A stretch of DNA of 64,000 nucleotides from a virus. Taxonomy: Duplodnaviria; Caudoviricetes. Made by a program: the position numbers and the translations under genes. The notes below the pieces were generated by a model that searched no databases, was not told where the DNA came from, and saw nothing but the letters and a program-made list of their open reading frames with translations. The first letter of the stretch is position 1; each line of letters starts with the position of its first letter. This document shows, in pieces, positions 1-55,219 of the stretch. Location: the IMG/VR virus record IMGVR_UViG_3300031994_000006, positions 32,001 to 96,000 of that record; one strand, 5' to 3'.

Positions 1-2967
1 ATCGACCGTCGACGGACTGTCCTTCCATTTGACGTACGCCTTGGGCGCCAGCCTCTGCCGGATCCTTGCCCTACTGCCGGCGAATGCCTCCTTTAGCATC
101 CTCGCGAAGTCGGACAGCCTGTCCGTATTGACAAGCCATACCCTGTCTGAGAATTCCGTAAAGTCCTGCCATGTAGGATCCCTGGTGACGATTTCACCTT
201 CAAACGTGTTCCTCAGGGTCGTCTCATCCGTGAACCATTCAGGATATTCATACTGGAAGTTATATCTGACCGTATAGTGTTCCCTGCCGCTGAGCGCGAA
301 CTTCACCATCCTCACCCATACCTTATCGCCGAGCACATACAGCCTGAGTGACCACTCCTGCACGAACTGTTTCATATTCCCGCGCCCCTCGGCCGACCTC
401 TTACTGCCTTCCGGCATAAGCCTGAAGATGTCTATGAAGTTCATGTCTTTCGGCATATGGCCGCTCTCATAGCCCATGACGCCGCGGACGAACGAATTCT
501 CAATATACACGACGCCCGCAAGATGCCTGGTCCTACGATCCTGCGGATTCTCGACAACGACCCATTTGTCGTCCTCGAGCATCTTCTTGATCATGGCCGT
601 GAGCATCTCCGCGGCCGACTTGCCGTCTGTATGGAAAGGACTGTCGAAGTCGAACGCCGACTCTTTCTTCCTGGCCTGATTACCGGCCCTGAACGCCTCG
701 TTTACATTGCCGAAGGCCCTGTCGATACATTCCCTGAATTTCGCGGTATTCTCCGGATTGAGCAGCATCGTCGGATATCCGTGTTCGACCATAAGATGGG
801 TTTCAAGATTGATTTCCGAGAACATATCCAGATACGCGTTCGGTTCTTCATTGCGTTCAAGGCTGTCACAGAAATAGTCCCATGAAGTACTCATCGATTC
901 ATCATAGGACTCGGTCGAGATCCACAGCCTGGCCCATCCGCCGTAGACGCTGACGTTATTCGGCGAATCACAGTCGAACTCAAATGTAATCCTCTCATCC
1001 AGGCCGTTGTATTCGACGGTCGGGGAATACACACCGAGCTTAATCGACTTGTCATCGAGATGTGAATAGTCAAGAAGCTCGGTATTATCGGGATACCTGT
1101 TCGTTATATCCTTGAAAAGCCTGAGAACGTCTTCGGCGTTACGGCATCCGAGAGATACCGACTCGACTGTATCCTGTACAGACTCCTTCTTCCTCGCCCT
1201 GTTGCCGGCGCGGAACGCCTCGATTACCTGACCGGCAAGATGACGCTTTGTCATCCATTCCTTTACATTAATACAGTTTTCATTTTCGCCTCCGGGTTTT
1301 TGGATTTTAATTCCGAGCCGTTTGATGAAAGGCATGAGACTCTCCGGGATATCCCAGATACAGTCACATTTGACAGTCAGATCAGCCGGTAAAAAAGTCA
1401 GTCCTTCACATCCTTTGATAAACAAATCACCTTCAATAGTCAGTCCCTGAGGCAAAGATCTCAGATTGGTGCAGTTTTCAAGATGCAGGCAGTCTCCGAC
1501 CGTCATTCCTTGCGGTAATGACGTCAGTTCGGTACAGTTCTCGAGAAACAGATTGCCTTTGAAATCGGTTAAACTTGGAGGAATGCTTGTCAATTTTGTA
1601 TAATCAAGAGATAAATCGCCTCCGACGACAAGATCGGCGGGCAATGAGGTTATCGGACAGTCTGAAAGTTCCAAATTCTCTCCTACGTACAGACCGGCGG
1701 GCAATGATTTTAATTTACTGCAGCCGCTGAGGCCTAACGATCCTCCGACCTTCAGTCCCTGGGGCAGTGAAGTCAGGCTAATACAGTCATAGAGAAGCAG
1801 ACTGCCGAAAACCTCGAAATCAGAAGGCAAAGAACTCAGATTGCTGCAACCGGTCAAATCCAGGAAATCAGACGTCAGTCCTTCCGGCAGTGAAATTATG
1901 TCATCGCAATAAGTAAGATTCCATTCATCACTGTCAAGATAAATCCTGTTATTCCTGATTTCAGCTTCAACACCGGTCTGTTCCTCAAATTGTTCAATCC
2001 GCGCTTTAAGAAGGTCGACTGTCTGTACAGCATTCTGAACGGATTCTTTCTTCCTGGCCCTATTGCCGGCGCGGAACGCCTCGCTGACGGGCCATTCGAT
2101 GCCGCATATGTCCCTGAGGATTCCCATGCGGTACTGGCCGAACGTCATGCCGTTCGACATTTTAGAGTCGTTGGCAAGTTCGTCCAGGTACATCTCCCAG
2201 TCATAATGCACGAATCCCATGTCGTCGACGTGCAGTATCCAGAAAGCCCCGTGGGGATCGCCCTCTATCGGCCAGAGGATTCCCTGCCACTGTGTGACGT
2301 CGTCGTCGAACGTCACCATATAGGTATCGACCTTCCCGGGATCCGAGACCGTCTCACACCAGTAGAACAGCCATCCCTGCGGCTCGGGGACCGCGTCCGG
2401 ATCCGGCAGCTTGTATCCCCTGATATCGTCACTGTCCTCCCATGAGCATATACGTCCGTCGCCGAATACGTCGACCTTATTCACAGTATAGCCCTTTTGC
2501 ATCATCAGGGAGATGACCGATGCCATATAGCTGCCGGATGACACCTGATTGACCGCACCGACGGCGGATTCCTTCTTCCTTGCCCTGTTGCCGGCCCTGA
2601 AGGCCTCGTCGGTCCTCGGGACACGTATCATGGCATCCATGACATTGAAGTCCGTACTGCGTCCCCTGTTGGGCCTGAAGCCGAATCTCCTGTAGAACTT
2701 CTGCAGCCTGCCGACCGATGTGGCGCCCATTGACTTGTCAGGTGTCAAAGTCAATGTCCAGCCCTGTCTGTCCGCCAATCCGGCCAGATCCTTCATGAAT
2801 CTGGTACCGGCGCCCTTGCCGCGTTCCCTGGCCGCGATACGGCTGATCTTCAGATAATTACGGGAAAGGCTGAGCGAGAGCTCGCTCAGTCCGTATTCCT
2901 CCATCAGTCCGGGATCATTGATACAGATGCCCTTGTCCGAGAGCTTGTCGATAAGACTGTCTATCAT
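1..2967 (-). CDS. Tag-delimited polyprotein A (partial, >=989 aa): N-terminal GNAT acetyltransferase-like domain, then tagged modules including a 9-repeat LRR module
   Basis: ATG at 2967, 20 nt after the portal stop. No stop-terminated ORF is listed in this frame, so it runs off the left edge. Begins MIDSLIDKLSDKG...RERGKGAGTRFMKDL...RLQKFYRRFGF. Tags are in frame at 2607, 2082, 1221, 699 and (degenerate) 90. Confidence 0.88.
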   Translation of the reverse strand, partial: MIDSLIDKLSDKGICINDPGLMEEYGLSELSLSLSRNYLKISRIAARERGKGAGTRFMKDLAGLADRQGWTLTLTPDKSMGATSVGRLQKFYRRFGFRPNRGRSTDFNVMDAMIRVPRTDEAFRAGNRARKKESAVGAVNQVSSGSYMASVISLMMQKGYTVNKVDVFGDGRICSWEDSDDIRGYKLPDPDAVPEPQGWLFYWCETVSDPGKVDTYMVTFDDDVTQWQGILWPIEGDPHGAFWILHVDDMGFVHYDWEMYLDELANDSKMSNGMTFGQYRMGILRDICGIEWPVSEAFRAGNRARKKESVQNAVQTVDLLKARIEQFEEQTGVEAEIRNNRIYLDSDEWNLTYCDDIISLPEGLTSDFLDLTGCSNLSSLPSDFEVFGSLLLYDCISLTSLPQGLKVGGSLGLSGCSKLKSLPAGLYVGENLELSDCPITSLPADLVVGGDLSLDYTKLTSIPPSLTDFKGNLFLENCTELTSLPQGMTVGDCLHLENCTNLRSLPQGLTIEGDLFIKGCEGLTFLPADLTVKCDCIWDIPESLMPFIKRLGIKIQKPGGENENCINVKEWMTKRHLAGQVIEAFRAGNRARKKESVQDTVESVSLGCRNAEDVLRLFKDITNRYPDNTELLDYSHLDDKSIKLGVYSPTVEYNGLDERITFEFDCDSPNNVSVYGGWARLWISTESYDESMSTSWDYFCDSLERNEEPNAYLDMFSEINLETHLMVEHGYPTMLLNPENTAKFRECIDRAFGNVNEAFRAGNQARKKESAFDFDSPFHTDGKSAAEMLTAMIKKMLEDDKWVVVENPQDRRTRHLAGVVYIENSFVRGVMGYESGHMPKDMNFIDIFRLMPEGSKRSAEGRGNMKQFVQEWSLRLYVLGDKVWVRMVKFALSGREHYTVRYNFQYEYPEWFTDETTLRNTFEGEIVTRDPTWQDFTEFSDRVWLVNTDRLSDFARMLKEAFAGSRARIRQRLAPKAYVKWKDSPSTVD
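61..2607 (-). repeat. Coding tag repeats EAFRAGN(R/Q)ARKKES x4 plus one degenerate copy
   Basis: Copies at 2566-2607, 2041-2082, 1180-1221 and 658-699; degenerate LKEAF-AGSRARIR at ~61-96. Confidence 0.92.
1370..1920 (-). repeat. Nine ~21-aa leucine-rich repeats (LxLxxCxxLxSLPxGLxVxG)
   Basis: Manual translation gives DLTGCSNLSSLPSDFEVFGS, LYDCISLTSLPQGLKVGGS, LENCTELTSLPQGMTVGDC and similar units. Confidence 0.9.
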
Positions 2968-2987
2968 ACCGGTCCGTCATTCATCAT

Positions 2988-4856
2988 TTACATAGGCGCC
3001 GCAGGCGCGGGTGCGGCACCGGCCATCGGATCAGGCGCAGGCGCGGCCCCGGCCATCGGGTCCATACCTGACATCGGGTCCATACCTCCTGCCATAGGAT
3101 CACCGCCCATCATCGGATCCATGCCTCCCGCCATCGGGTCACCTCCCGCCATCGGGTCCATACCGCCTCCCATTCCGGGATCCATGCCTCCGCCGGGTGC
3201 TCCGCCCTGTCCGGCGACCTGCTGGGCCGCGAGTATCTGTATGTCAATGGCCTCCTTCTTCTCCTGCAGCAGGTAGTTCTCGTTCGTCTTGAGGTCCTCC
3301 TTGGTGAGTCCCATGTACTTCTCAATGAGGAACTTGACGCTGAACGCGGGTGTGCCGTCCGCCTTCTTGAGTCCCATAAGCGAGCTGACGGCGGTCGCGC
3401 CCTGCTGTGCGGTCGCGCGTTCCTTGGCGAGCTCGAACTGGTTGTCGTTGTTGTATTTCAGGCCGATGGAGTTCGGTATGACGCTGTTGAGCGCGAAGAG
3501 AGGCTGCTTCAGGCAGAACTGTATCCAGGTCGCCTTAAGCAGTATCTCCTTGAACACTGACTGTATGCGCTTGATGAATCTCGCGAACGCGGCCTCTTCT
3601 CGCGTTATCATGGCGTCTCCGTTCGCGGGGTTGTTCGGCGCGGCCTGCGGGTCGAGCAGGAACCTGTTCGCCGGGATCTTCGACTCCAGGATGAACCTGC
3701 GCCACCAGTACTTGAGCTCGTCGGTCGAATTGAGGTTGTATCCCTCGACGCCTATCTCCTCGATTTCCGTCTGAATGCCGGCCATGCTCGGGAAAATGTA
3801 CGTCTTGTTGAACGAGAACTTCGGCTGGCCATTGACGGTCATTGTACCGTCGATGTCGTTGATCTGTGTGTCCTCGTTGTAGTACGCCTTCAGCTCATTG
3901 AGCCTCTGCCGCTGACGGTCAGGCGTCTGGTCGCCGACCGGCACCACGATCTTGATCCTCTTCTGGGCGTTCTGGATGTTCCAGATGATGCGGCTGTTCT
4001 CCAGCTGCCTGAGCATGTTGAACGTCCTGGTGAGCGACTCGAGGTACGATATACGGCTCGTGAAGTTACCCTTAGCCCATGAGATATAGATGATGTGCGA
4101 ATCCGGTATGATGCGCTGCTTCTCGGCGTCGTCACGGTACTGGTACCATATCTTGATGTCCTGCCCGGTCGACTCGTCCTTCACGATGTCCGGCTCGAGC
4201 GTCGTCGGATCAAGCTCCTTGAAGCCGATGATGTCCTTGGCCTGATAGGAGTCTTCGTCATAGTCGAACAGTATCTCGAACGCCAGGAAGCCGTCACAGA
4301 GGAACTTCTTCATGTACTCCCATGCATCGTTGGAGTTTCCCCATCCGAACATGTCATACACGCGCTTGTACGACTCGTCAAGCAGCTTCAGTATCTTCTC
4401 AGACTCCTCGGTCTTCTTCAGCCGGCGCTTCAGGCCGTCCGTGTCGAGGTACGCGAAGAAGTTGTTCTGGTCATATACGACGGCATCGTCCGCTATAGTC
4501 TCGAGTATGAAGTTGATCTCGCCGTTCTGGGCGAAGTCCCTCAGATACTGGCGACGCAGCGGATAGTCACGGTCGAAGAAGCAGACATAGTCCGAGTTGA
4601 TGCGGGTGATATCCTGCGTCTTGGCATAAAGCGAGTCGTAGAAATCCGTGGATACGGTACGGTTGTACATCGTATCGCTGTCACGGTTGGTCTCGGTCGT
4701 ACCGTGCGACAGTGACGACTTGATAAGGGAACGGTCCCAATCGAGACTGATGCTCGACAGGGTCATCGTATTGCTCTTCTTTATGCGGCCCTTGAACTCC
4801 TTCTCGGCGTATTCGCCGGGCGAGTAGCTCCTGAGCAGGTAGTTTTCTTGAGGCAT
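2988..4856 (-). CDS. gp20: Portal protein, T4 gp20-like, with a GGMDPM low-complexity tail
   Basis: Motifs ISYLESLTRTFNMLRQLENSRIIW, ELKYWWRRFILESKIPANRF and ITREEAAFARFIKRIQSVF are typical of T4-superfamily portals. Confidence 0.9.
   Translation of the reverse strand: MPQENYLLRSYSPGEYAEKEFKGRIKKSNTMTLSSISLDWDRSLIKSSLSHGTTETNRDSDTMYNRTVSTDFYDSLYAKTQDITRINSDYVCFFDRDYPLRRQYLRDFAQNGEINFILETIADDAVVYDQNNFFAYLDTDGLKRRLKKTEESEKILKLLDESYKRVYDMFGWGNSNDAWEYMKKFLCDGFLAFEILFDYDEDSYQAKDIIGFKELDPTTLEPDIVKDESTGQDIKIWYQYRDDAEKQRIIPDSHIIYISWAKGNFTSRISYLESLTRTFNMLRQLENSRIIWNIQNAQKRIKIVVPVGDQTPDRQRQRLNELKAYYNEDTQINDIDGTMTVNGQPKFSFNKTYIFPSMAGIQTEIEEIGVEGYNLNSTDELKYWWRRFILESKIPANRFLLDPQAAPNNPANGDAMITREEAAFARFIKRIQSVFKEILLKATWIQFCLKQPLFALNSVIPNSIGLKYNNDNQFELAKERATAQQGATAVSSLMGLKKADGTPAFSVKFLIEKYMGLTKEDLKTNENYLLQEKKEAIDIQILAAQQVAGQGGAPGGGMDPGMGGGMDPMAGGDPMAGGMDPMMGGDPMAGGMDPMSGMDPMAGAAPAPDPMAGAAPAPAAPM
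2991..3200 (-). repeat. GG(M)DPM(A)G peptide repeats in the portal C-terminus
   Basis: GGMDPGMGGGMDPMAGGDPMAGGMDPMMGGDPMAGGMDPMSGMDPMAG. Confidence 0.9.
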
Positions 4857-12735: not shown

Positions 12736-14385
12736 ATGATTTATGCTGACATAACAGACGACGGAAAGTTCCTCACCCTTACAGGGATGACGATGACGGA
12801 GCTCAAGCAGCTTCAGATTTCGTTTACCAAGGAACTTGACGATGCATGGCTGATAAAGAAGAAGACCCCCTGGGCCGCGTTCGAGACGAAGTTCATGAAC
12901 GACTACGGCATGATACCGGCCGGACTGTGGCTTGAGCTCGTCAAGATAAGCCGCAGGTGGTCGCTTCCGCTCGATTTCAGCCCGAAGGCTGTCAGCATGC
13001 TCGTGGATCAGTCCGTCAGCGAGCAGGTGTTCAAGAACTACTGCAGCATGCTGTTCGAGGACGCCAGAGACGGCGAGGGCCATCCGGTCACGCTCCGCGA
13101 CTATCAGATAGACGGCGTGTTCAATCTCGTCAAATACCGCAAGGCCTGCCTGGAGATCACCACCTCAGGCGGCAAGACTCTCATGGCCTACATCCTCTTC
13201 AGGTTCCTCCGTGACGTAATGAACGTCAAGAGGCTCCTGTATATCGTGCCTAACAAGAACCTGGCGACGCAGTCGGCCGAGGCGTTCGACAAATATGAGA
13301 AGTGGACGCACAGCGACCATTCATGGACGAGCGTGGCCCTCGCGTCCGGTACCAAGAAGAAGGATCGCAGGTTTTCGAGTGAGTGTACGGTGCTGTTCGC
13401 GACGTTCCAGACGCTCAACAATAAGGACATGCAGTTCTTCCAGTCGTTCGACGCCGTATTCGTCGACGAGTGTCATCATGCACAGGCGAACTCCATTAAG
13501 AAGATATTGACGATGTGCACCGGCGCCAGTTATGTGTTCGGCATGACCGGCACGTTCCCAAAAGAGGACTCACATGACAGATTCCTTATCGAGTCCTTCA
13601 TAGGCCCGCACGTGTTCACGCTCGAGTCGTTCCAGCTCATACAGGAAATCGGCGGCGCCTGCCCGGTGGTCGTCGTGGAGGAGCTGCTCGACTGGGCGTC
13701 GACAGATGACAAGAAGGCCCTGTACGAGATCAGGAAGACCGCGGCCGGCCAGGACCTCGGCACCAAGCTCCTTCGTCAGGAGCAGGACTTCGTCAACGGC
13801 AATCCCGACCGCCTGTACTATATCTGCAACCAGGCCATCAAGGCGAAGGGCAACTGCATGATACTGTTCGGCGACGTCAACATCGGCAAATACGGTCATA
13901 AGGTGTGTGAATACATCAAGGACAACTCGGACAAGAACGTCTACTATGCAGATGGCTCTACACCTGTCCGTAACCGTGAGATCTATAATGACCTGCTTGA
14001 GAACGATGTCTCCGGCAATACGATTATCGTGGCGTCCATCTATACATACGGAGAGGGTATCGACCTGCACAACCTGTACTCCATATTCCTCGTGAATTCC
14101 CTGAAGAGCGAGAAGCAGCTGCGCCAGATACTCGGCCGCGGCATGCGACTCTATACGAATCCGGAAACCGGCGAGGAGAAGAAGATGGTCGTGCTGTTCG
14201 ACTTCGTGGACGACCTGAGGTACGGCAAGAAGGACGACTCGCCCTGGAGGACCAACAACTACCTCTGGCGGCATCATGAGGAAAGGCATCAGATCTACGT
14301 CGACCATAAGTTCCCGGTATACCAGCGCGAGGTCAAGCTGGGATACCAGGCGGCCAGGTCCGCCAAGGGAATAGATATGTCATGA
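12736..14385 (+). CDS. uvsW: UvsW-like SF2 DNA helicase
   Basis: LRDYQ, TSGGKT, VDECH, GMTGT, EGIDL and QILGRGMR motifs. Confidence 0.9.
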   Translation: MIYADITDDGKFLTLTGMTMTELKQLQISFTKELDDAWLIKKKTPWAAFETKFMNDYGMIPAGLWLELVKISRRWSLPLDFSPKAVSMLVDQSVSEQVFKNYCSMLFEDARDGEGHPVTLRDYQIDGVFNLVKYRKACLEITTSGGKTLMAYILFRFLRDVMNVKRLLYIVPNKNLATQSAEAFDKYEKWTHSDHSWTSVALASGTKKKDRRFSSECTVLFATFQTLNNKDMQFFQSFDAVFVDECHHAQANSIKKILTMCTGASYVFGMTGTFPKEDSHDRFLIESFIGPHVFTLESFQLIQEIGGACPVVVVEELLDWASTDDKKALYEIRKTAAGQDLGTKLLRQEQDFVNGNPDRLYYICNQAIKAKGNCMILFGDVNIGKYGHKVCEYIKDNSDKNVYYADGSTPVRNREIYNDLLENDVSGNTIIVASIYTYGEGIDLHNLYSIFLVNSLKSEKQLRQILGRGMRLYTNPETGEEKKMVVLFDFVDDLRYGKKDDSPWRTNNYLWRHHEERHQIYVDHKFPVYQREVKLGYQAARSAKGIDMS

Positions 14386-17300
14386 AGATCGATTTTGACA
14401 TTAAGAAAACCGTTAAGGAGGCCTTCAGGGCCGGCAACCGGGCCCGTAAGAAGGAGGCCGTCGCCGATACCGTCGAATCAGTCGACAAACTGCAGCAACA
14501 GATTGACAGATTCAGGGAGCAGACCGGATATAAACTTGAAATCAGGAACGGCAGGCCCTATTATGATAACTTTATAGATCTTGAGAACTGTACCGATCTG
14601 ACGGAACTGCCTGACGGCCTGACGGTCAAGAACTATCTCTGTATCAACGGATGTACCGGACTGATGAAGCTGCCGGACAATATGACCGTCGGCCGCGATT
14701 TCTATCTTAATGACTGTGTTAACCTGACATCGCTGCCTCACGGCCTTACCGTCAAAGGCAGTATGTATCTCAAGAACTGTAACGGCCTGACTTCATTTCC
14801 GGCGGATTTGACTATTACCGGATTTTCGATTTACAGGGTTCCTGAGAGCCTTTTCCCGTTTTTCGAGAGCATCGGTGTCGAGGTCCGGTTTATCGGCGGT
14901 ATCCATACGATAGACGCGAAAGACTGGATGGACAGGCGTCATATGGTCAATGAGGCGTTCAAGGCCGGCAACAGGGCCCGTAAGAAGGAGTCCGTTCATG
15001 ATTCGGTATCTGACATACACGATGACGAACCTGTGACGGATGCCGCCGCGGCCGCTGATTTCCTCCGCAATCTCAATAAGAGATTCCCGGGCGTCACCAG
15101 GTTCAAGGATGACCGGTATGAGTCCACATATGTCGAGTTCGCCGTATGGGACGTGAATCATCAGGATACCATGTGGTTCTCGTTCTGGAGGGATTCAGCT
15201 AACCTGGCGGCAGACAGCTGCCTGGATCCTGCCGTTACGCTGATGATATGGTCGGAGGCCGTCGTCAAGGGCGTGCGCGGCCACTGGAAAGGCTATAATG
15301 ACAAGGAGGCTATCCGTGAGAACTATGTCAAAATGCTGCAGGAGTCCGGACTCCCTATCGACATGGCCGACGTCGAGGCACGCCGCAAGCCGAGGCTCAG
15401 GCTGACCAGCAATTCTCTGGCGAGGCTTGCCGCATATGTCGCCCGTCAGGCCGAGATGCAGATCATGGCGCCGCTGGGCAAGGCGTTCCAGCTCGAGGAG
15501 GCGTTCAAGGCAGGTAACAGGGCGAGGAAGAAGGAGTCCGCCCAGGATACGGTCAAGTCCGCCGACGCATACTTCAATTCGGAAAGCATTGACGAGCTTG
15601 ACTCGTTCATCCGGATGGTATGGAAATCCGTATGCGGCGATACCGATATCGACGCGCCTTGTATGGACAATGATCATTATGACAGCGAGGCCGGGATATG
15701 GTGGGGACCGCTGAAATTCCATCTTGAATCCGGGAATATAAAATACCGTATATGTTTCCTGAAGACCGCCGATATACAGGCGTTTAACAAGGCGTTCAAC
15801 AAGGCCGGCGAATCGAATGACGAGTTTGGTCAGGAATGCCCTGCCAAATGGGCGTTCGACATGCATGTCCAGATCGGCGATGAGATGGCGTCTGTCAGAC
15901 TCTACAGGATCGAGCCGTATTCAAAGTACAGCAATACGAATGTGGTGACCTATCCGGTAGGGGTGCCGCAGCTGACAGAGGCATTCAGCGTCCTCAGGCT
16001 GATTTATTCACGAGGTATCCATACCAGGGAGCATGAGGCCGGATGGAGTACGCCGGGCAAGCAGGGCAGTTACTTCTACGCATGCAGCAGATTCTCCGTA
16101 CAGACATGGAGGAATCATATCCTGCCTATCGATGATCATGAGCAGCTGCAGAAGTATTTCACGGATACGGCCAGGGCCGTGTACTTCCGGGAATGCGACA
16201 GGTCGGTGGACGAGGCCTTTAAGGCCGGCAACCGCGCCCGTAAGAAGGAGTCCGTACAGGATGCCGTAGAGGCCCTGTCGTCATTGGAGTTCTATGTCCC
16301 GGCTATGAACGACATCCCCAAGACGGTGCTTGAGAAGGGATCCCCGGCGATTGAGTCGCTGTTCACCCGGAACGGATTCGGCATTCATGAGAAGAGCACA
16401 TACTTACATCCGAAGGAGGCCCTGTGGACCGTCAATATAGACGGCAGCCCGCGTAAGCATATATCGGTCGCATATGTGCAAAGGGGATCCGCAGGATGGG
16501 TGATGTTCCTGAAGATCGGATTCACCGTCATCAAGTGTCTGGTCATAAACAGTCCTGAATGGCTGGGATTCCTGAAGGATCTGACCAGTAAGGCCGATTT
16601 GTTCAGGCTGTATTTCTGGATGACCGGAGACGGCGGCGCCACGCAGGAGATGCGCGACCTGAAGCACAGATATATCGAACGCAGCAAGCCTGTCTACGGA
16701 AATGCTGTGAACCTGACGGAATTCTATGATGCTATATTGCTGCCGTTGATAGATCATTACGGTATCAATATGCCGGACTGTTGTATGTTCGCCGATACAG
16801 TCACGCCGGTTGACATGCTCAGGAAAACCCAGACATACGCCGACATCAGGGAATATATCTCAAAACTGGACGTCAATAATCTCGGCGAGGCCTTCAGGGC
16901 CGGCAACAGGGCCCGTAAGAAGGAGTCCGCCGCCGATACGGTCCAAGAGGTCGACAAGGATCTGAAGGATGAGGATATCGACAGGATTATTGACGATCTG
17001 TGCGGGAAATACCCGGATGTCGCGCATAAGAAGAACTATTATCATGCCTTCAACGGCGACGTCCTGGAGATATACGACGACGATGCGGACGACAATGCCG
17101 TACTGGTGTTCGAGTACCCGAGTGAGAAGGACGACGGAACCGTAAGGGTCCTCGTCTCTTCGTACAGGAGAGTCTATGCACAGGGATCCGAGGAGCAGAT
17201 TGACAAATCCTATAAAATCATCTGCGACAGGCTTATCGACGACAACGTCGATTCCGGGACGGTCACGGCCGACGACGACGGCTGTATGATATTCGAGCTG

Positions 17301-18538: not shown

Positions 18539-18633
18539 TCCGTCAGGGTCGGCCGCCTCCTTAAAATGAACTTATTGGAACAATGGGAGGCACCGGAGGT
18601 ATTCCGCTCCGCCGCAGGGTCCGCCCCGGCGGC

Positions 18634-18978: not shown

Positions 18979-19007
18979 CTTCGGACGGCCCCCGGCGTTA
19001 AATTGTT

Positions 19008-37645: not shown

Positions 37646-37648
37646 ATA
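37641..37648 (+). promoter_or_regulatory. T4 late promoter consensus TATAAATA
   Basis: Exact match 4 nt before the ATG of a tagged gene. Confidence 0.6.
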
Positions 37649-37652
37649 CGGT

Positions 37653-38096
37653 ATGAGACTCGACAGGATTTATACCCAGATAACCGAGGCGTTCAAGGCG
37701 GGCAACAGGGCACGCAAGAAGGAAGCTGTCCAGGATGCGGCCGTCATGCCGGACAGTCCCGTGGACGAGGATCTCCGGGATCTCGTCAACGATTTTATGT
37801 TCAGGACAAGCGTGGAGGCCTGCATAGAGACCAACGGCTGCGACAAGTCCAAGCTGACAATCAGCGGCGACAATTCACAGATCATCGTCCGGTTTATGCT
37901 CCCTGGCGAGAACAAGAAATGTTTTATCCTGATATATCCGGCCGAAAAACATGTCATACTGCACGGCGGCAAGGTGCAGGGAATCAAAAAGATTGATTTT
38001 GACAATGACGGCGATTTTACCCCCAAGGTGAACCTGATGGTCAACATGATGCACTACGTCGAAATGCTTATCGGAACATACAAAGAAGAAGTGTAA
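37653..38096 (+). CDS. Single-module tagged protein C
   Basis: MRLDRIYTQITE|AFKAGNRARKKEAVQD; tag at 37686. Confidence 0.85.
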   Translation: MRLDRIYTQITEAFKAGNRARKKEAVQDAAVMPDSPVDEDLRDLVNDFMFRTSVEACIETNGCDKSKLTISGDNSQIIVRFMLPGENKKCFILIYPAEKHVILHGGKVQGIKKIDFDNDGDFTPKVNLMVNMMHYVEMLIGTYKEEV

Positions 38097-39651: not shown

Positions 39652-39659
39652 AATAAATA
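39652..39659 (+). promoter_or_regulatory. Late-promoter-like AATAAATA
   Basis: In the 29-nt gap between two divergent tagged genes. Confidence 0.5.
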
Positions 39660-39680: not shown

Positions 39681-40130
39681 ATGTCATATTTACTTTCCGA
39701 TATATTCCGGCAGCTCTGTGAAGCCTTCAGGGCAGGCAATGCCGCCCGTAAGAAGGAATCTGCACAGGATTCCGTCGACGGAGGCCGTGTCATACCGCCG
39801 TCGGAGGTGCTGAAGCAGTATTTCGGTGATAAGATGGACGACCTGAGGACCGTCAAGATAGACATTGACGGACGGATCAGGGAATACCTGACGACATATG
39901 TGGAGGGATATACGGACGGCCGTAATATGGTCAGGATCTCGTTCATTGACGAATGGCCCCTGATTTCCGGCGATACATTCCTTCTCAAGATGTACTATGA
40001 CAACGGCGACAGGGATGATCTCCATTTCGGCGATGAAATCGACAATGCCGATATATTGCTCTGTGTGTGCGACGAGATTATGGACGCCGTCGACGGATCG
40101 GAGGATGAAACTGAAGAGGATGACGAATGA
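39681..40130 (+). CDS. Single-module tagged protein E (acidic)
   Basis: MSYLLSDIFRQLCE|AFRAGNAARKKESAQDSV; tag at 39720. Confidence 0.85.
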   Translation: MSYLLSDIFRQLCEAFRAGNAARKKESAQDSVDGGRVIPPSEVLKQYFGDKMDDLRTVKIDIDGRIREYLTTYVEGYTDGRNMVRISFIDEWPLISGDTFLLKMYYDNGDRDDLHFGDEIDNADILLCVCDEIMDAVDGSEDETEEDDE

Positions 40131-46608: not shown

Positions 46609-48549
46609 TTAGAACATGCCAGCGAAGTCCACGTGGAAGGTGATGTACTGGGTCTCAGGATAGAAACCAGTGTCGATAAGAGCGTAACGGCTCTTGATCA
46701 TTACCTTCGGAGCCATGGTGCCCTCAGAGATGATCTTCACAGACTCAGCCATGAGGTAGGGTGCGAACACAACACCGGGCTCATCCTTGCTGCCCTTACG
46801 GCCGACGAGGACACGGGTGTCATTACCAGCCATCAGAGGATCAACATAGACCGTGATACCTGCGACGTTGCCGACAGGATACAGGCTGTTGCCGTTCTGA
46901 GCGACGTTGTTCTCGATCGGAGCCCAGATATTCTGCGCGTTGCTCTGGAGAGCGGTAGCGACAGTAATATTGGTAACAGCGAACGTAGCGCCGCCGTAAC
47001 GACCACGCTGGAGGATCCAGTTGTTGGCGGTGATGAAGTTCATCTGCAGCCTCTGGAGCAGGGTAGCCTGGTTCTCGAAGATGGCCTTGCTGTTCAGGTA
47101 GATGGGCTTGTACGGCATGGAGACGTTAGTCCACTTGCGGTACGTACCGTCTGCGCCGACAGTCGTAGCGTCAGCCTGTGGGATCGCATAGGCAGGAGTC
47201 ATGCCGTTACCGAAGATACCGGCAGTCTTGCTGTCCTCAGCGAACGAGATGTTCAGGTTAGCTACAGAACCCTCAACCTCAGCGAGCTTGCAGTGGTTCT
47301 TCCAGCCGAGAGCGAACAGACGAGAGAGGATGTGACGGTTGATCGTCGAGCTGAGCTCGTTGACACCGGCGTTCTCAATCATCTTCAGCACATCGATACC
47401 CCACTGCTTCTGGAGGTCAGTTACCTGCTCCTGAGTAACAGCGACGGATACCATGATGGTACCTACGGTCACGTTCTTCGTGAACACCTGGAGGCTGAGC
47501 TGACGAGCGTAGCTCATCTCACCTGTACCACGAGACATGGGCTCGTAGAGAACCGTTCCGTCCTGATACGTGCCGTACCAAGGATCCATGTCGTTGACAC
47601 CGGATCCAGTGAAGCCCTGGATCTGATCCTCAAGCATAGAAACCAGACGGGGAGTAGTAATCGTAGCGCCAGCCAGGCTGCCGGTCAGGGCAACAGGACC
47701 AGCGGCGAACTCCTGAGCGAGGGTCTTGGCGCCCTTGACGATCTTCAGGATGGGGTCGCCATCGAGACGGCTCCAGCCGACGAACTCGAGCGTCAGGCCA
47801 TCAGCCTCGTTGAGGACGGTCTCACCGGGAACCAGACCCGCAGCGCGTGCGGCGGCCTTCAGGGCACCTACAGACTTGGCAGAGCCGATAGAGTCGAAGG
47901 AAGCCTTGAACATGTGAGGCAGACCGTAGAGGTCGTTGGGCTTGTTAGCACCGTTGGCGTCCAGATCGTGGAAGTGGTTGACGTTCTGGGTAGCGTCGTC
48001 GTAACCCGGGGTAGAACCGTAGGGCTGCTTCGTTCCGCTGTAGACGTAGTCCATGTAGGGGATTACGCCGGTCGGTCCCTGCATAGGAACGGTGTTGACC
48101 AGGTCGAAGCCGATGGTCTTGGCGGCGACCTTCAGTGCCAGGGGCAGGAGGGCGGGCCACTTGTCACCGGAACCCATCTGGGTGCCGTCAGCCTGATCAG
48201 CGGCGGTCAGGCCGGGAGTGCCTGCGGGAACGGCGTCACCGATGCCGAGGGTGTTGTACAGGGTCTGGTAGGGAGCATACACGCCGCCGACGGTACCGTT
48301 GATACCGGAAGCGTTGTTGAAGTATGCACCGCCGGGGACCTGAGCCTCATTCAGTGAACCGAACGCGCCGTAGCGGGCTGCTACGTTGGCGTTGATGCGG
48401 GCGTTCTCGTTGAGAGCCTGCACGGTGTTCATGGCAATCTGGGCCATGAGGGCCTTCTTGGCGGGATCCTTGACACCGGTAGTGCGCTCAATCATCGCGC
48501 CCCAGCTCTCGGTCAGCGCCTTACGGCTGTTCTTAAGATTACGTGCCAT
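46609..48549 (-). CDS. gp23: Major capsid protein, T4 gp23-like
   Basis: IGFDLVNTVPMQGPTG, EQVTDLQKQWGID, ELSSTINRHIL, ITVYVDP, GVVFAPY and PKVMIKSRYAL; predicted cleavage LNE|AQ at E68. Confidence 0.93.
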   Translation of the reverse strand: MARNLKNSRKALTESWGAMIERTTGVKDPAKKALMAQIAMNTVQALNENARINANVAARYGAFGSLNEAQVPGGAYFNNASGINGTVGGVYAPYQTLYNTLGIGDAVPAGTPGLTAADQADGTQMGSGDKWPALLPLALKVAAKTIGFDLVNTVPMQGPTGVIPYMDYVYSGTKQPYGSTPGYDDATQNVNHFHDLDANGANKPNDLYGLPHMFKASFDSIGSAKSVGALKAAARAAGLVPGETVLNEADGLTLEFVGWSRLDGDPILKIVKGAKTLAQEFAAGPVALTGSLAGATITTPRLVSMLEDQIQGFTGSGVNDMDPWYGTYQDGTVLYEPMSRGTGEMSYARQLSLQVFTKNVTVGTIMVSVAVTQEQVTDLQKQWGIDVLKMIENAGVNELSSTINRHILSRLFALGWKNHCKLAEVEGSVANLNISFAEDSKTAGIFGNGMTPAYAIPQADATTVGADGTYRKWTNVSMPYKPIYLNSKAIFENQATLLQRLQMNFITANNWILQRGRYGGATFAVTNITVATALQSNAQNIWAPIENNVAQNGNSLYPVGNVAGITVYVDPLMAGNDTRVLVGRKGSKDEPGVVFAPYLMAESVKIISEGTMAPKVMIKSRYALIDTGFYPETQYITFHVDFAGMF

Positions 48550-48907: not shown

Positions 48908-51900
48908 ATGGGAAAAATCGATTTCGATAAGATGAACGAGGCCTTCAAGGCCGGCAATAGGGCGAGGAAGAAGGAGGCCGTACAGGATACGGTCGAATCG
49001 GTCGACAGCATGCAGGCACAGATTAAACTGTTCAAGAAGCAGACCGGTGTAGAACTCGAGATCAGAGACGGACGTCCATATTCTGATAGAGACCTGGATC
49101 TGGAAGGCTGTACCGGACTGACAGGCCTGCCGGTTGGACTGGAGGTTAACGGGTATCTGTACTTGGACGGCTGCACCGGGCTGACAGGCCTGCCTAAAGG
49201 CCTGGAGGTTAACCGGTATCTGTCACTTGAAGGCTGTACCGGACTGACAGGCCTGCCCGACGGGTTAAAAGTCAGAGGAAGCCTGTGGCTGAAAGACTGC
49301 ACCGGACTGACAGGCCTGCCTGACGGGTTGAAAGTCAGAGGAGATCTGGTTCTGACAGGCTGTACCGGACTGACAGTCCTGCCTGCAGGCCTGGAAGTTG
49401 AAAGACTGCTGAATCTGGAAGGCTGCACCGGACTGACAGGCCTGCCGACTGACCTGGTTGTCCGGGGTGATTATATTGTGCACAAGGGCGTGCTGACATC
49501 GTTCTTCAGGAAACTTGGGATACCGGTTGACGACGACGGAAATACAGATGCGGAAGACTGGCGTAGGTGGCAAAAAGCGCACGGATATCTTACAGAGGCG
49601 TTCAGGGCCGGCAACAGGGCCAGGAAGAAGGAATCCTTGCAGAATGATACGGATGCCGTATCCAGATGGCGCATACCGAAGAAGCTCGAGACCATCGACG
49701 ACTGGGAGGCCGCGTTTCTGCTGAACGCCGAGTCGGTCGGTATTACGGCCACATTAAGACAGTCGGATTCCCCGAGCAGTACGACGCGTATCTATAACCT
49801 GTATGTCCGATCAACGGAAAACAATTCCGTCACTTTCTCTGTCGGCATCACGAAGACTGATTTCTATTCGGACAATTCCCCGTTCGGCATAATAATGCGT
49901 GTAATCCTCAAGTTGGGCGCGGCCATCGGTAATGTATCGATGCACCTGGTACCTGTCACGGATGCTGCGAGGAATACGTCAGGGAGGAAAATATTCACGG
50001 ATCTGTCCGCTGCCATGGATTCCGTATGGGAGATAATCAACTATCTCAGGAACAGCAGACATTTAGGACAGGTTCTGAAGAATCCGCTCATACTCGAGCT
50101 TGACTCATCCGACGTCACGATGATCATCGTTGATGAATACCTCAGGTCCGAGCCGGGATGTCCGCTTATCTGGAACCAGAGGGATGAATATCAGGATTTC
50201 CTGACAGACTATGATTCAGAGCTAAGGCGTGCGACCGCCGTCGGACCGTGGATCAACTGGCACGGAGACACCGAGGTGCTGGCCGAGGCCTTCAGGGCAG
50301 GCAACAGGGCCAGGAAGAAGGAGTCGATATCCAGGACGTCGAATATCGTCAGCACCAGGGTACCGTCAATCACAGAGCTCGGCGACATGCTCCTTGATCT
50401 CGGATTCCTGGTCAGGAGCGGTAAGAGGGACTATGCCGAGGAGCGTCAGGAGAAGGCCCCTGAGGAAATCGACAGCATCCTGTTCAGCAAATGGTATACG
50501 CCGTCGGGCAAGGTGCCTGAAAGCGGTCCTATCAAGGAGTCCATGATACTGATGCGCGGCGGATACGGCTTATTGAATAACAAGGAGTCCGGACGGAAAA
50601 TCCCCTATATCAGCGCGGAGATTCATGTCGATATAATGCTGGACGAGGAGACCGTCGGCAAATACAGGCTGAGCTCGCTGTCAAGCAACTGGAGCTCCGT
50701 ACTCAACCTGACGGCATTCAACAAGGTCGACGAGGAGTTCATGCCAAGATTCGCCGTTCTCATGAAACTGTGGAGCGACAGCGACAGGATACTCAAGGGC
50801 CTGTATGACATGACAAAGGACAACCTTCTCCTCTTGAGGGTCGATCAGTACATACAGAAGGCGTATATCCACAGGCTGCTGTGCAGGCTCATGCCGGAAT
50901 TCGAGTCATGGCTATACTCGGAAGGTTTCGGTATCGGCAAGGAGATAGATCCTGACTCATGGCAGTGGCAGGCATCGGGCTGGATCAAGATGCCGGAGAT
51001 ACCGGAGGCGCCGCAGACGCCTGTCAACGAGGCTTTCAGGGCCGGTAACCGCGCACGTAAGAAAGAGACCGTCCGGGACGCTGTACCGGATAATGTGGAT
51101 CCTCCTATCAGGTTCGAGGATCCCAATGTCGAGAAGATATGTCACGGGCACGGCGTCTATACCATTGGCGACGCGGCCGGGATCGAGACGATACAGGGAT
51201 GGTTCGAGATTGACAGCGGCGCGGGTATCGATAATCCGGAAATCGTGAAGTTCAATGAGCTCAGGTACTTTACCGGACTTACGACCATTCCCGCCAATGC
51301 GTTCCTCGAGCAGGAGAAGCTTGAGGAGATTATGATACCCGATAGCGTCACGGTAATCGGTCAGTGCGCGTTTGACTCGTGCAGGAATCTGTCGAAGCTC
51401 GTCCTGCCCGACAGGAACAGCCTGGAGCTCGGTAATGACTGTCTGCAGTCGTGCGACGGACTGGACGAGGTCGTCGTGCCGTCCGGATGGTCCAGATGGG
51501 ATTGCATCCAGAATATGAAGGAGGCGTATGACAATGAACTTATCTGGTACCAGGAGAAAATCGATGACAACCGCATACCGGAGGAGTCAGCCTTCGAGCT
51601 GCTCGATGCGAGACTTGATACGTATTTCACCAACCGTCAGGATACGCTTGACTGCAGATTCTCCGACCTGCTTGACTGGTGGACCGAGGATGACTGTTAT
51701 GATGACGGCCAGGACAATGACGGCGAGGAAATGTCTGAGGCGTTCAGGTCCGGCAACCGCGCCCGCAAGAAGGAGTCCGTCCAGGATACCGTCCAGTCGG
51801 ACGACGCACTTGACGACCGCAACAGGTGCGCCGAGATGATGAAGACCATGCTGACGTCGCCGGCATGCCCGGCCGTAAGGATCATAGGCGATCGGCCCGC

Positions 51901-54900
51901 GGTCGTCGAGAACGCGCCGGCGATAGACCCGGCCGACATCAAGATAAGCGAGCACCTCGGCAATAACCAGGACTATACGCTCGTCGTCCTGAAATGGGAG
52001 GGTGTCGACCAGACCGATCCCGCGCAGAACTTGACATACGTCACGGAGATTTCGTTTTCGGAGGCGACCGACGGATCGGGCCTGCTCATATCGGGCGGAT
52101 GTTTTAATGACGATGATTCGGCAGACTTCTCGCCGCTTCCCGACATGTGTATCAGGGCCGATGCGGAGAATGACGGCCGGCCGAAGCTGTGGGAGCTGTG
52201 CTATGTCGAGGACTGGGAAACCGTGGATCCGGACGGCATGACGTATTCGAAGGTGTCCGTGAACGCGATGGCGGCGGTCGCCGCCGCCGTCAGGCAGATT
52301 AAGGAGCAGGACCGCAGGAAGGATCCGTCGTCGGCCGGCAAGTACCCGGTCGGCGAGGCGTTCAAGGCCGGCAACAGGGCGCGTAAGAAGGAGGCCGTCT
52401 CCGATACGGTACAGGATACCGATACGTTCATAGGCGACGGTATGCCGGCTGACAAGATTATCCCGAATCTATTCCTGAGCGCCGTCAGTACGACACAGGC
52501 GCTGCTCAGGATGCTGGGCAACGTCAATCCGCCGTTCAAGCCTGAGTTCCCAAGCTATATGAAGTGGTTCATTGATATCATAATCTCCATGTATATCAAG
52601 ACCTCGATTTCCTGGCAGCGCAGGATTTCGATCGCGAACGTCAAGGGCAGCCCTGACAGGAACAAGGGACAGGAATTCGATATCATCCTTGAGATGGGAA
52701 TCAGGAAATACCATTTTCTCATAACCCCGGGCAACAAGGAGAACCAGTATGCGGTATGGTTTAAGATGACCGTGCATCTGTTCGACATAGACTTCAATCC
52801 TGATTATCCGGAGCAGTCCGCCGTCCATATAGCGCCGGCCATGAAGTATTTCATTGCCGGATTCCTTGAGGCATACAGGACGTTCTTTGAGGAAAAAGGT
52901 GTGCTCGAGGCGTTCAGGGCAGGCAACCGGGCCAGGAAGAAGGAATCCGTACAGGATACTGTCAATGCTGTCGATGTACCGGTCAGATTCGAGGATCCGG
53001 TCGTCCGCATGTACATGGAGGAGCATGGGATAACGACTTTGTCCAAGGTCGCGACCGCGATATTGCCGATATGGGATGCCGATGAACAGGAAGACTGGTT
53101 CAGGCCTGAGAGGTTCAATGAGTTCAAGCTGTTCACGTCGATAACTCATATCAAGGAATATATGTTCAACGGACAGGAGAATCTTGAGGAAATAGAGCTC
53201 CCGCCTACAGTACAGGCCATCGGATATGGGGCATTCAGATCATGCCTGAGTCTCGAGAACCTTGACATTCCCAATTCATGCAGGGAACTCGGGGAAGACT
53301 GCCTTGCCGGATGCGACAGCCTTGAATATGTTGGTTTCCCGGATTCATGGACCTATGAATACGCGTTCGAGCAGTTCGCCAGGGCATTCAAAGATGATAT
53401 TGAAACCCTGCCCGACATACTTACCTGGAATGATGTCAACTCATGGGATGAGATGCCGTTCCCTGATGCGACGATTACGAACAATTACTATACATTCCAT
53501 CTGTCGGATCTGTTTAAGAAGTTCAGCGACCAGGATACCCTTGAGATGCATGGACTGCTTAATGAGGCCTTCAGGGCCGGCAACAGGGCCCGCAAGAAGG
53601 AGTCCGCCGCCGATACCGCAGAGGGTCCGTTAAAGCAGATTCCGTTTACTGAGAAGGAAATCAGGGACGCCTTCAGGGCGATAATCGACAGTGAGGACAA
53701 TCCCATCAGGAAGAACGCGCAGCCCGGCTATGAGGACAAGATAAAGCCGGCCGCCGTGCTGGCACAGGCCGTCAGTTATTCATGTGAGGCCTTCAGGAAA
53801 CTGTTCAGCCGCGTTATGGCAGGGCCGTGGGGCAAGCTCAAGATTACATGGGAGGAATGGCGGGACGGACGCCGCTGGGGCGGATGGACGGAACTCGGTA
53901 TAGTCAAGGTCATCATCAGCCGGGACGACTTCAAGGACGGCACGCCCGTCAAGGTGTGGAAGTTTTCGCTCAGGATTACCAACGACTTCGAGAACGACTG
54001 GCAGGACAGGTTCGGCGTATTCGCCGGATTCGACGCCGCTGAGAATCTGAACGTCGAAATATACAAGCCTGTTATAGACATATACATCAGGCACAACCCG
54101 TATAAGATATATGTTCGTCAGGCATTCGTCGACGGGCTTAACAGATTCTTCTCATATGAGATCTGGGAGGCTTTCAAAGCCGGTAACAAGGCCAGGAAGA
54201 AGGAGTCCGTCATCGATACGGTCGAGTCGGTCAATGATATACAGACACAGATTGAATTGTTCAGGAAACAGACTTTCGGCATAGAGCTTGAGATCAGGGA
54301 CGGACATCCGTACTTTAACGGAGACCTGGATCTGCGAGGCTGCACCGGACTGACAAGCCTGCCTACAGGCCTGGAGGTTGAAGGAGACCTGGATCTGGCA
54401 GGCTGCACCGGACTGACAGGACTGCCTGCAGGCCTGAAGGTTGAAGGAGACTTGTCTCTGGAAGGTTGTACCGGACTGACTGGCCTGCCGTTTGACTTGG
54501 TTGTCCGGGGTGCTTATATTTTTCATGATGGTATGCTGATACCGTTCTTCAGGAAACTTGGGATACCGGTTGACAAAGAAGGAGACACAGATACAGAAGA
54601 CTGGTGTACGTGGCAAGAAGCTCATGGATATCTTAAAGAGGCCTTTAGGGCCGGCAACCGTGCAAGGAAGAAGGAGTCCGCCGTCGATACGGTCGATTCC
54701 GTCAATGTGAAGATTACGAAAGAGGAGGTTGTCGGATGGTTCAGGGATGCGATAGATTCTGACCGGAATACCATACCGAAGAATGATCCGCATGCCTGGC
54801 CTGCAATGTGCCTTGTCACTGACGCCTTGTTTACAAGGCTTGCCATTGATAAGCTTGTTGATAAAATTAAGGAAAGTGACAGCGGTGTTGTTATAGAGCG

Positions 54901-55219
54901 TGTATCATACGGACAGTTCCGTAATCCTAAAGGGCCTAATCAGTTCGGCAGTAAGACCTTGGGTTTTGTCGATGTAACGGCAGGCTTTAAGGATCGCAGT
55001 TTTTCATGGAGCTGGGAATTTGTAATTACTATTGAAGATTATAAAGGCAAGGAAGATTATTGCTATAAGCTTTATGTCAATTCTCGTGTAAATTCTGAAA
55101 GCCTTTTACCGGGTCCTAAAAATGAACCGTTGGTGACCGTCTATGCAAGACGTACTCCGTATAAGATAGAAGTCAATGAGAAATTCATCGACGGTATTAA
55201 CAGTATATTGAAACAATGA
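48908..55219 (+). CDS. Tag-delimited polyprotein F (2103 aa, 10 modules: 2 LRR, 2 BspA-like LRR, others unknown)
   Basis: Tags start at 48938, 49595, 50285, 51029, 51737, 52355, 52907, 53564, 54167 and 54638; leader MGKIDFDKMNE. Confidence 0.93.
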   Translation: MGKIDFDKMNEAFKAGNRARKKEAVQDTVESVDSMQAQIKLFKKQTGVELEIRDGRPYSDRDLDLEGCTGLTGLPVGLEVNGYLYLDGCTGLTGLPKGLEVNRYLSLEGCTGLTGLPDGLKVRGSLWLKDCTGLTGLPDGLKVRGDLVLTGCTGLTVLPAGLEVERLLNLEGCTGLTGLPTDLVVRGDYIVHKGVLTSFFRKLGIPVDDDGNTDAEDWRRWQKAHGYLTEAFRAGNRARKKESLQNDTDAVSRWRIPKKLETIDDWEAAFLLNAESVGITATLRQSDSPSSTTRIYNLYVRSTENNSVTFSVGITKTDFYSDNSPFGIIMRVILKLGAAIGNVSMHLVPVTDAARNTSGRKIFTDLSAAMDSVWEIINYLRNSRHLGQVLKNPLILELDSSDVTMIIVDEYLRSEPGCPLIWNQRDEYQDFLTDYDSELRRATAVGPWINWHGDTEVLAEAFRAGNRARKKESISRTSNIVSTRVPSITELGDMLLDLGFLVRSGKRDYAEERQEKAPEEIDSILFSKWYTPSGKVPESGPIKESMILMRGGYGLLNNKESGRKIPYISAEIHVDIMLDEETVGKYRLSSLSSNWSSVLNLTAFNKVDEEFMPRFAVLMKLWSDSDRILKGLYDMTKDNLLLLRVDQYIQKAYIHRLLCRLMPEFESWLYSEGFGIGKEIDPDSWQWQASGWIKMPEIPEAPQTPVNEAFRAGNRARKKETVRDAVPDNVDPPIRFEDPNVEKICHGHGVYTIGDAAGIETIQGWFEIDSGAGIDNPEIVKFNELRYFTGLTTIPANAFLEQEKLEEIMIPDSVTVIGQCAFDSCRNLSKLVLPDRNSLELGNDCLQSCDGLDEVVVPSGWSRWDCIQNMKEAYDNELIWYQEKIDDNRIPEESAFELLDARLDTYFTNRQDTLDCRFSDLLDWWTEDDCYDDGQDNDGEEMSEAFRSGNRARKKESVQDTVQSDDALDDRNRCAEMMKTMLTSPACPAVRIIGDRPAVVENAPAIDPADIKISEHLGNNQDYTLVVLKWEGVDQTDPAQNLTYVTEISFSEATDGSGLLISGGCFNDDDSADFSPLPDMCIRADAENDGRPKLWELCYVEDWETVDPDGMTYSKVSVNAMAAVAAAVRQIKEQDRRKDPSSAGKYPVGEAFKAGNRARKKEAVSDTVQDTDTFIGDGMPADKIIPNLFLSAVSTTQALLRMLGNVNPPFKPEFPSYMKWFIDIIISMYIKTSISWQRRISIANVKGSPDRNKGQEFDIILEMGIRKYHFLITPGNKENQYAVWFKMTVHLFDIDFNPDYPEQSAVHIAPAMKYFIAGFLEAYRTFFEEKGVLEAFRAGNRARKKESVQDTVNAVDVPVRFEDPVVRMYMEEHGITTLSKVATAILPIWDADEQEDWFRPERFNEFKLFTSITHIKEYMFNGQENLEEIELPPTVQAIGYGAFRSCLSLENLDIPNSCRELGEDCLAGCDSLEYVGFPDSWTYEYAFEQFARAFKDDIETLPDILTWNDVNSWDEMPFPDATITNNYYTFHLSDLFKKFSDQDTLEMHGLLNEAFRAGNRARKKESAADTAEGPLKQIPFTEKEIRDAFRAIIDSEDNPIRKNAQPGYEDKIKPAAVLAQAVSYSCEAFRKLFSRVMAGPWGKLKITWEEWRDGRRWGGWTELGIVKVIISRDDFKDGTPVKVWKFSLRITNDFENDWQDRFGVFAGFDAAENLNVEIYKPVIDIYIRHNPYKIYVRQAFVDGLNRFFSYEIWEAFKAGNKARKKESVIDTVESVNDIQTQIELFRKQTFGIELEIRDGHPYFNGDLDLRGCTGLTSLPTGLEVEGDLDLAGCTGLTGLPAGLKVEGDLSLEGCTGLTGLPFDLVVRGAYIFHDGMLIPFFRKLGIPVDKEGDTDTEDWCTWQEAHGYLKEAFRAGNRARKKESAVDTVDSVNVKITKEEVVGWFRDAIDSDRNTIPKNDPHAWPAMCLVTDALFTRLAIDKLVDKIKESDSGVVIERVSYGQFRNPKGPNQFGSKTLGFVDVTAGFKDRSFSWSWEFVITIEDYKGKEDYCYKLYVNSRVNSESLLPGPKNEPLVTVYARRTPYKIEVNEKFIDGINSILKQ
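49091..49470 (+). repeat. Six 63-bp/21-aa LRR tandem repeats
   Basis: tgyaccggactgacaggcctgcc core with a 63-nt period (49109, 49172, ...); GCTGLTGLP. Confidence 0.92.
54320..54512 (+). repeat. Three 63-bp LRR repeats, paralogous to 49091-49470
   Basis: DLDLRGCTGLTSLP / DLDLAGCTGLTGLP / DLSLEGCTGLTGLP. Confidence 0.9.

Follow-up and report, generated by a model that had tools for sequence, protein, structure and literature searches.

Clade-specific peptide tags on putative capsid cargo of a Lak-related jumbo phage and their candidate mimicry by Bacteroidales proteins

Internal proteins of phage T4 are trimmed by the prohead protease gp21 and later injected (PMC9958956), gp21 cutting after the E of I/LxE (PMC12991175). 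Polyvalent proteins are large mosaics of several domains, believed to be packaged and injected; they join 2-15 domains in variable combinations, and their processing has been ascribed to fused metallopeptidases, in a text that makes no mention of the word linker (Iyer et al. 2017, PMC5512222). Here, we report a repeated peptide tag, EAF(R/K)AGNRARKKE, which separates the modules of three polyproteins encoded in a 64,000-nucleotide stretch of viral DNA (hereafter the window; bases 32001-96000 of the 207,794-base contig IMGVR_UViG_3300031994_000006). Sequence analysis suggests that the tagged proteins are capsid cargo cut by the prohead protease, that their tags are clade specific, and that hosts mimic them, and we put the probability of this full explanation at roughly 0.6.

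The system resembles that of the T4 internal proteins IPI-III and Alt, which pair a capsid-targeting sequence (CTS) with gp21, in its T4-type portal, capsid, and protease, in short N-terminal leaders ending in hydrophobic-x-E, in a common signal on unrelated late proteins, and in likely injection with the DNA. The conserved T4 signal is N-terminal, single, and cut off, whereas here it stands after the predicted cut, would be retained, and is repeated in chains of up to 10 modules; for these reasons we do not count the phage system as a member of the T4 internal-protein system. Also unlike the T4 signal, the tags differ between clades and are copied by host genes. The mosaic architecture, the range of 2-15 domains in variable combinations, and a GNAT domain are shared with polyvalent proteins, but the modules here are leucine-rich repeats (LRR) or without family and are delimited by one repeated tag. 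When 48 module representatives were checked for enzymatic domains typical of polyvalent proteins (MPTase, ART, PBECR, InPase, MuF, and others), the only domains recognized were GNAT and LRR, and most modules had no family. The literature within reach of our search, which excluded most subscription papers, describes no retained clade-specific cargo tag, polyprotein layout, or bacterial copies of such a tag.

A six-frame search of the window found 23 tag copies, every one in coding frame and distributed as 4, 6, 10, 1, 1, and 1 over six open reading frames (ORFs), exactly as the original prediction had counted them; 17 of the 23 match the 13-mer exactly and 6 carry a single substitution. The degenerate additional copy listed there was recovered as a weak, gapped remnant near ~90(-). 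Base shuffles of the window (n = 30) gave 0 matches, even allowing 4 mismatches. Confinement of the tag to six genes is true of the window, but the whole contig holds 41 copies in 13 genes. Likewise, the first ORF does have its four tags, but it extends beyond the window and starts with an untagged domain. The residue two before the E (P3) is L, V, I, M, or F in 22 of the 23 window copies, as had been claimed, the exception lying at 2607; genome-wide it is hydrophobic at 37 of 41 tags vs 32% of other E-A/E-S sites (p=1.5e-14), and it is so in 155 of 170 distinct phage tags. The features of the window are as follows.

1..2967 (-), continuing 251 nucleotides past the window start: polyprotein 1, 1072 amino acids (aa), an untagged GNAT domain plus 4 tagged modules, between the portal and prohead protease genes
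2608..2967 (-): untagged GNAT-like module at the N terminus (Pfam Acetyltransf_7, E 0.0079; 1.7e-4 in one ortholog)
2566..2607 (-): tag 1.1, sole window copy without hydrophobic P3
2041..2082 (-): tag 1.2, then an LRR module (1219-2079) missing from ortholog P0019
1180..1221 (-): tag 1.3
658..699 (-): tag 1.4
61..90 (-): gapped, degenerate tag remnant
2988..4856 (-): T4-like portal protein with late promoter, heading the polyprotein 1 operon (Pfam Portal_T4, 1.8e-54)
14382..17870 (+): polyprotein 2, 1162 aa, 12-residue leader plus 6 tagged modules, the first an LRR
14418..14459 (+): tag 2.1
14952..14993 (+): tag 2.2
15498..15539 (+): tag 2.3
16212..16253 (+): tag 2.4
16887..16928 (+): tag 2.5
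17358..17399 (+): tag 2.6
37641..37648 (+): T4-type late promoter TATAAATA before a single-module gene
37653..38096 (+): single-module gene, 11-residue leader, tag (37686-37727), 122-aa module
38929..39651 (-): single-module gene, 8-residue leader, tag (39586-39627), 218-aa module
39653..39659 (+): late-promoter core ATAAATA between two divergent single-module genes
39681..40130 (+): single-module gene, 13-residue leader, tag (39720-39761), 122-aa acidic module
46609..48549 (-): T4-like major capsid protein, 45-73% identical to huge-phage capsids, with hydrophobic-x-E followed by S/A at residues 14 and 68
48908..55219 (+): polyprotein 3, 2103 aa, 10 tagged modules (m1 and m9 LRR; m4 and m7 BspA-type LRR family; m8 and m10 a paralog pair), divergent from the capsid gene
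48938..48979 (+): tag 3.1
49595..49636 (+): tag 3.2
50285..50326 (+): tag 3.3
51029..51070 (+): tag 3.4
51737..51778 (+): tag 3.5
52355..52396 (+): tag 3.6
52907..52948 (+): tag 3.7
53564..53605 (+): tag 3.8
54167..54208 (+): tag 3.9
54638..54679 (+): tag 3.10

No two of the 41 DNA copies are alike (mean identity, 79%), tag pairs differ by 5.5 synonymous codons vs 7.4 at saturation, and codon use is near that of the genome. The copies differ mostly at synonymous sites, so selection acts on the peptide, in agreement with the original prediction. Over 170 distinct copies, positions 1, 2, 5, 6, 8, 9, 10, and 12 after the E are 98-100% fixed and positions 3 and 7 are variable, with F, G, N, and R invariant, a pattern that would fit one helix face docking on a partner. 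Tag joints are spanned by contigs from an independent goat sample. First tags are preceded by leaders of two classes (FDFD type and RLxxIY type, in the first 8-16 residues of tagged genes). The majority of tag copies are internal, and three tagged genes have no tag near their start. The FDFD leader resembles the tag of a relative described below (G002) and may be an older tag. Two further genes (genome 21711-22940 and 100896-102854) have a leader and E followed by no tag, one of them methyltransferase-like (phrog_3689). In a 1728-aa polyprotein (genome 186333-191519), a tag with its 20 upstream residues is partially duplicated (L003:13573-13730), a recombination trace at the tag.

The gp21-like protease that had been expected outside the window is encoded just beyond it, directly downstream of polyprotein 1 (genome 29386-31686(-); L001:9386-11686), matches phrog_207 (E 1e-38), and has intact catalytic His and Ser motifs. 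Polyprotein 1, between the portal and protease genes, occupies what we take to be the slot of T4 core genes 67/68. The protease catalytic domain is followed by V-N-E-S, invariant in 7 relatives, and by a 580-residue scaffold-like tail rich in cut sites and including a duplicated block of ~30 residues. This C-terminal extension is the most enriched of genes in hydrophobic-x-E followed by S/A (17 sites vs 2.4 expected; p=9e-10), and other head-region proteins come next, including a scaffold-like protein (7 sites vs 1.9 expected). In this way the head proteins of the phage reveal a cut rule, which the tags appear to follow. The second E of the tag (K-K-E before S) was considered as the cut site and is not favored, since its P3 is K and hosts retain it. 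A predicted complex of the protease domain with a junction peptide scored 0.02, which is evidence neither way. The late-promoter core precedes 26 of the 172 contig genes, mostly structural, and is found before 4 of the 13 tagged genes and the heads of two tagged operons; none was found for the gene at 48908. RNA contigs, which span the capsid gene and portions of polyprotein 3, can neither rank genes nor show expression.

Polyprotein 2 is recorded as an identical protein on a 443,820-base contig, so the 207,794-base contig is about half of the genome. We regard the phage as a ~444-kb Lak-related jumbo phage of the sheep gut, which is where the best-matching sequencing runs originate; its host range can be suggested from relatives only. 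Capsid, portal, and sheath are T4 type, and the phages related by capsid are huge (up to 673 kb), some of them sharing code 15 with Lak phages.

Among polyprotein orthologs, entire modules are gained or lost at tags (polyprotein 2 orthologs hold 5, 6, or 7), and identity jumps between successive modules (80, 32, 41, 43, 86, and 78% along one protein), which suggests that modules move as tag-bounded units. The 204 modules of the clade fall into 60 families, the largest being LRR with 61 members. That modules are mostly unrelated needs qualifying: 12 of the 41 in the contig belong to a single LRR family, and two more pairs are paralogs. The tag is basic, and every module but one of the 41 is net acidic. 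In an AlphaFold model of polyprotein 2, the LRR is confident and the rest is poor (predicted local distance difference test [pLDDT], 46 for the whole model). The tag is modeled as a helix; every tag lies outside the LRR at pLDDT 20-40, so this low-confidence model does not make it an integral element of the folded domain, a possibility the original prediction had raised against itself. A PDB fold search with the model matched the LRR alone, a viral fold search was uninformative, and an atlas search with module 2.3 gave only viral clusters without names. The modules, many of them LRR binders, are most likely injected host-takeover or anti-defense proteins.

Running a motif profile over the genome and related phages, as had been suggested, returned the 41 contig copies, and the relatives proved to have other tags. 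Among phages, the EAF(R/K)AGNRARKKE-type tag is confined to rumen-type metagenome contigs of this clade; its exact DNA pattern has no match in IMG/VR or GTDB (a copy in L077 differs by one substitution outside the pattern), and its profile was not matched in 21 capsid relatives. Clustering of residues after hydrophobic-x-E revealed the other tags (counting of 7-mers missed those of G001 and G002). In G001, whose capsid is 73% identical, an LGL-type tag stands at 21 sites, and the G001 polyproteins adjoin the protease and capsid genes just as they do in the phage studied here (G000), with a different tag. In G002 this cut site is followed by an acidic FDFD tag, the Lak-type G010 has the tag AVNRGIQLALDD on 30 genes (mostly single module), G017 has a GVFKNP tag after the cut site, and the 412-kb phage G425 has an SVWAD-type tag (about 27 after cut sites in the loci fetched). 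No tag cluster after cut sites was found in the fragments G008, G019, G020, and G021. One LRR module family is common to two tag types. Some first tags in the LGL clade have no upstream E, and one G001 gene starts almost directly with the tag. The constant element would be the cut site followed by a clade-specific peptide, with the tag as a clade-specific address. The basic tag had been proposed as a DNA-binding handle; this is not supported, since its positional equivalents in relatives are acidic or neutral (G002, Lak type) and F, G, N, and R are invariant, which argues against a generic DNA-binding tail. An origin of the tag in the scaffold tail was rejected, with no profile match in scaffold, protease, or capsid. 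A second motif class follows cut sites in 9 genes of G010 (L128-L147) and 4 genes of G017 (L148-L167); the G010 version is a helix with a cut site on either side, nearer to a removable T4-type leader.

We propose that the tagged genes are expressed late and encode cargo for the capsid interior. In front of each module stand hydrophobic-x-E and, after it, a fixed tag of 13-22 residues; the chains would join the prohead core, the gp21-type protease would cut after the E, and modules of 15-40 kDa would leave with identical free N termini. Both this sequence of events and the broader notion of protease-cut capsid cargo with a retained sorting signal strike us as highly probable. That the tag acts as an address recognized by its sequence, with a phage-encoded partner reading it for prohead loading and for a step after the cut (retention or ejection), seems likely to us, if with less assurance. 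Use of the address after cutting as well would explain why internal copies do not decay. The tag probably serves both loading and a later step because three tagged genes lack a tag near the start, one G001 gene starts almost directly with it, and internal copies are invariant. The reader might be the scaffold-like protein or a MoxR ATPase together with its peptidase-vWA partner, a pair described for jumbo phages (PMC7824862) and encoded here at L186:10954-17705(-) (genome 13954-20705) as a 1344-aa metallopeptidase-vWA protein and an 874-aa MoxR-like AAA ATPase, both with late promoters. Between G000 and G001, these candidates share only 31-33% identity, in comparison to 73% for the capsid. Such a system would give a handle on how T4-type heads select and eject internal proteins, swappable tags and readers having to covary between sister phages, and the motif alone would mark dozens of proteins per genome as candidate injected effectors in uncultured gut and rumen jumbo phages. 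Taken by itself, the phage half is a variation on the capsid-targeting system of T4, and the novelty rests on the host half.

The tag profile also matches proteins that start M-A-F without an upstream E and belong to a family of ~100 HExxH proteins. H240, E241, H244, E263, and E264 are invariant (HExxH plus a downstream Glu ligand), and the model (pLDDT 84) predicts a gluzincin-type zincin fold, matching DPP III, oligoendopeptidase F, and LTA4H (Z 10.0, 9.5, and 9.1; root mean square deviation, 3.8-4.6 over 177-218 residues). HExxH and the downstream E are common to these gluzincins; the host protein adds a phage-type N terminus of 22 residues, modeled as disordered. A Foldseek search returned nothing at E < 0.001. 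The genes sit on chromosomes of Prevotella and other Bacteroidales (next to comM, in islands of low GC, with a Bacteroidota promoter and AT-rich codons), occur in metagenome-assembled genomes of a Prevotellaceae bacterium and Prevotella sp. RUG473, and are not encoded in 3 phage genomes checked. Judged by neighboring genes, they lie in defense islands: DpnI and HipA (Pfam), an IetA-like AAA gene, and, judged by inspection, genes resembling HNH and AbiE; ligase and ATPase genes are close by. A variable slot after the peptidase gene holds different HNH-like nucleases (L074:11194-12285; L071:6189-7352), and distant relatives of the fold are fused to DpnI_C, HARE-HTH, and LRR_5 domains (atlas rows 2, 3, and 6).

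A profile built from phage tags only picks 30 of 99 peptidase N termini for the AFRAGN tag, 29 directly after Met, and the LGL-tag profile picks 48 of 99; those picked score above all 538 internal control windows. Per-position conservation agrees between phage and host AFRAGN tags (Spearman 0.88 for positions 1-13 and 0.95 for 1-22, values somewhat inflated by the choice of both sets by likeness to one consensus), with the same positions invariant and variable. LGL-type host N termini were noticed first and the G001 tag afterwards. One island holds alleles with different N termini, and N-terminal classes switch many times on a peptidase tree (a quick tree, in which long branches meet); the AFRAGN tag is retained on peptidases just 33-75% identical, in two distant clades; tentatively, the tag had two origins on host peptidases. 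A neighboring host gene of another family starts MSIWAD, and a pattern derived from it, and partly from other motifs of this kind, matched a single phage, the 412-kb one with the third phage tag, and another bacterial gene, which differs in its body and lies between DpnI and a pair of AbiE-like genes. Three host protein bodies (one zinc-peptidase family and two unrelated proteins) thus carry three phage tags. AFRAGN and SVWAD copies in hosts start at the residue after the cut, which independently supports the cut position and an N-terminal signal function; LGL spacing is looser on both sides. P0071 and P0073, peptidases nested in the AFRAGN clade, now have an AWKAVN-type N terminus and may track an unseen phage tag variant.

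Host proteins so tagged may be taken up by the head as it assembles, or be activated by it, and go on to ruin virions or kill the cell, a step to which we give slightly better than even odds; they might digest proheads from inside, be carried to the next cell, or be turned on by the tag reader. We lean, by a small degree, toward hosts mimicking the tag to hijack the cargo route for defense, and toward pressure from this mimicry driving phages to change tags. The composite picture would have Lak-related jumbo phages place clade-specific tags on injected cargo, unmasked by the prohead protease, and Bacteroidales Trojan-horse defense proteins wear the processed tag to enter or poison the head, with allele swapping in hosts and tag replacement in phages; it too is narrowly favored. 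Tab, Tai, and Bil are other systems that act on virion assembly, and the nearest logic is the packaging of APOBEC3G into HIV virions. In capsid remodeling by PLE, an element resembling phage-inducible chromosomal islands (PMC10945586), and in protease-sensing CBASS (PMC12991175), host-side proteins similarly exploit a late step of phage assembly, and none of these assembly-directed systems is described with a phage cargo address at the N terminus. If correct, the proposal adds anti-phage defense by mimicry of a virion address, findable through N-terminal tag searches, and pairing phage tags with host alleles could predict who infects whom.

Besides the inflated correlation, several findings weigh against the full explanation. 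No tag reader was identified, the tag is no copy of the scaffold tail, and modules are not depleted of cut-like sites (22 vs 16 expected). Only LRR and GNAT families could be named among the 48 module representatives (Pfam, PHROG, NCBIfam). The host peptidase matches no Pfam or PADLOC (2023) family and no defense model fits it, the host family is rare (2/401 and 1/401 genomes searched), and no phage was found for the SFT-type and PGE-type host N termini (20 single matches for SFT). These same N termini (L169:4568-5632, P0093-P0095, P0106, and P0131) predict further phage tags.

Cargo might be cut and its tag read after injection by a host factor (as a chaperone, localization, or degradation signal), bacteria using their own signal and phages having copied it. 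Bacterial copies are native N termini without leader or cut site and so work without the protease, and copying could have gone in either direction. We nevertheless think this unlikely: of 1.84 billion cluster representatives just 44 have the tag, almost all of them phage, and within the genus it was seen in 1/401 genomes, unlike a general host signal, and the unrelated tags of sister phages are each matched by island genes. It is similarly improbable that bacterial tags serve a satellite-like element shipping proteins in a helper capsid or are functionless leftovers of captured phage DNA. Such DNA could supply a tag, and the genes do lie in low-GC islands, one beside comM, with the ligase and ATPase genes; against this stand truncation exactly at the residue after the E in 29 of 30 cases, AT-rich codons and a host promoter, tag retention across the divergent peptidases of two clades, three bodies with three tags, and no capsid or terminase genes among annotated neighbors.

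Two readings dispense with the address on cut cargo. Uncut polyproteins, with the tag as a repeated docking helix on an intact multidomain protein in the style of polyvalent proteins, in the cytoplasm or on the virion, would accommodate the modeled helix, the LGL-clade first tags without upstream E, and the one window tag without hydrophobic P3. This is hard to reconcile with an invariant E and hydrophobic P3 before five unrelated tags, with host copies that drop exactly that part, and with the match of the rule to the protease's own tail, and we consider it a poor prospect. Poorer still is the idea that the repeat serves chiefly as a site where DNA recombines to shuffle cassettes, or is a basic DNA-binding tail of a generic kind. 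Modules are indeed exchanged at tags, orthologs are mosaic, and a basic tag accompanies 40/41 acidic modules, but 41/41 DNA copies differ, with synonymous change near saturation, the tag is never off-frame, and equivalent tags are acidic in G002 and Lak-type phages, with F, G, and N invariant. Under the favored explanation of protease-cut, tagged capsid cargo, recombination at tags is likely a by-product.

Elsewhere in the window, polyprotein 2 is followed (17885-21224) by a small-terminase-like gene (weak Pfam match), a DNA adenine methylase, and a ClpX homolog, and the relative L069 has the same order. G002 carries five or six copies of a transposase-like gene at 68484-174984.

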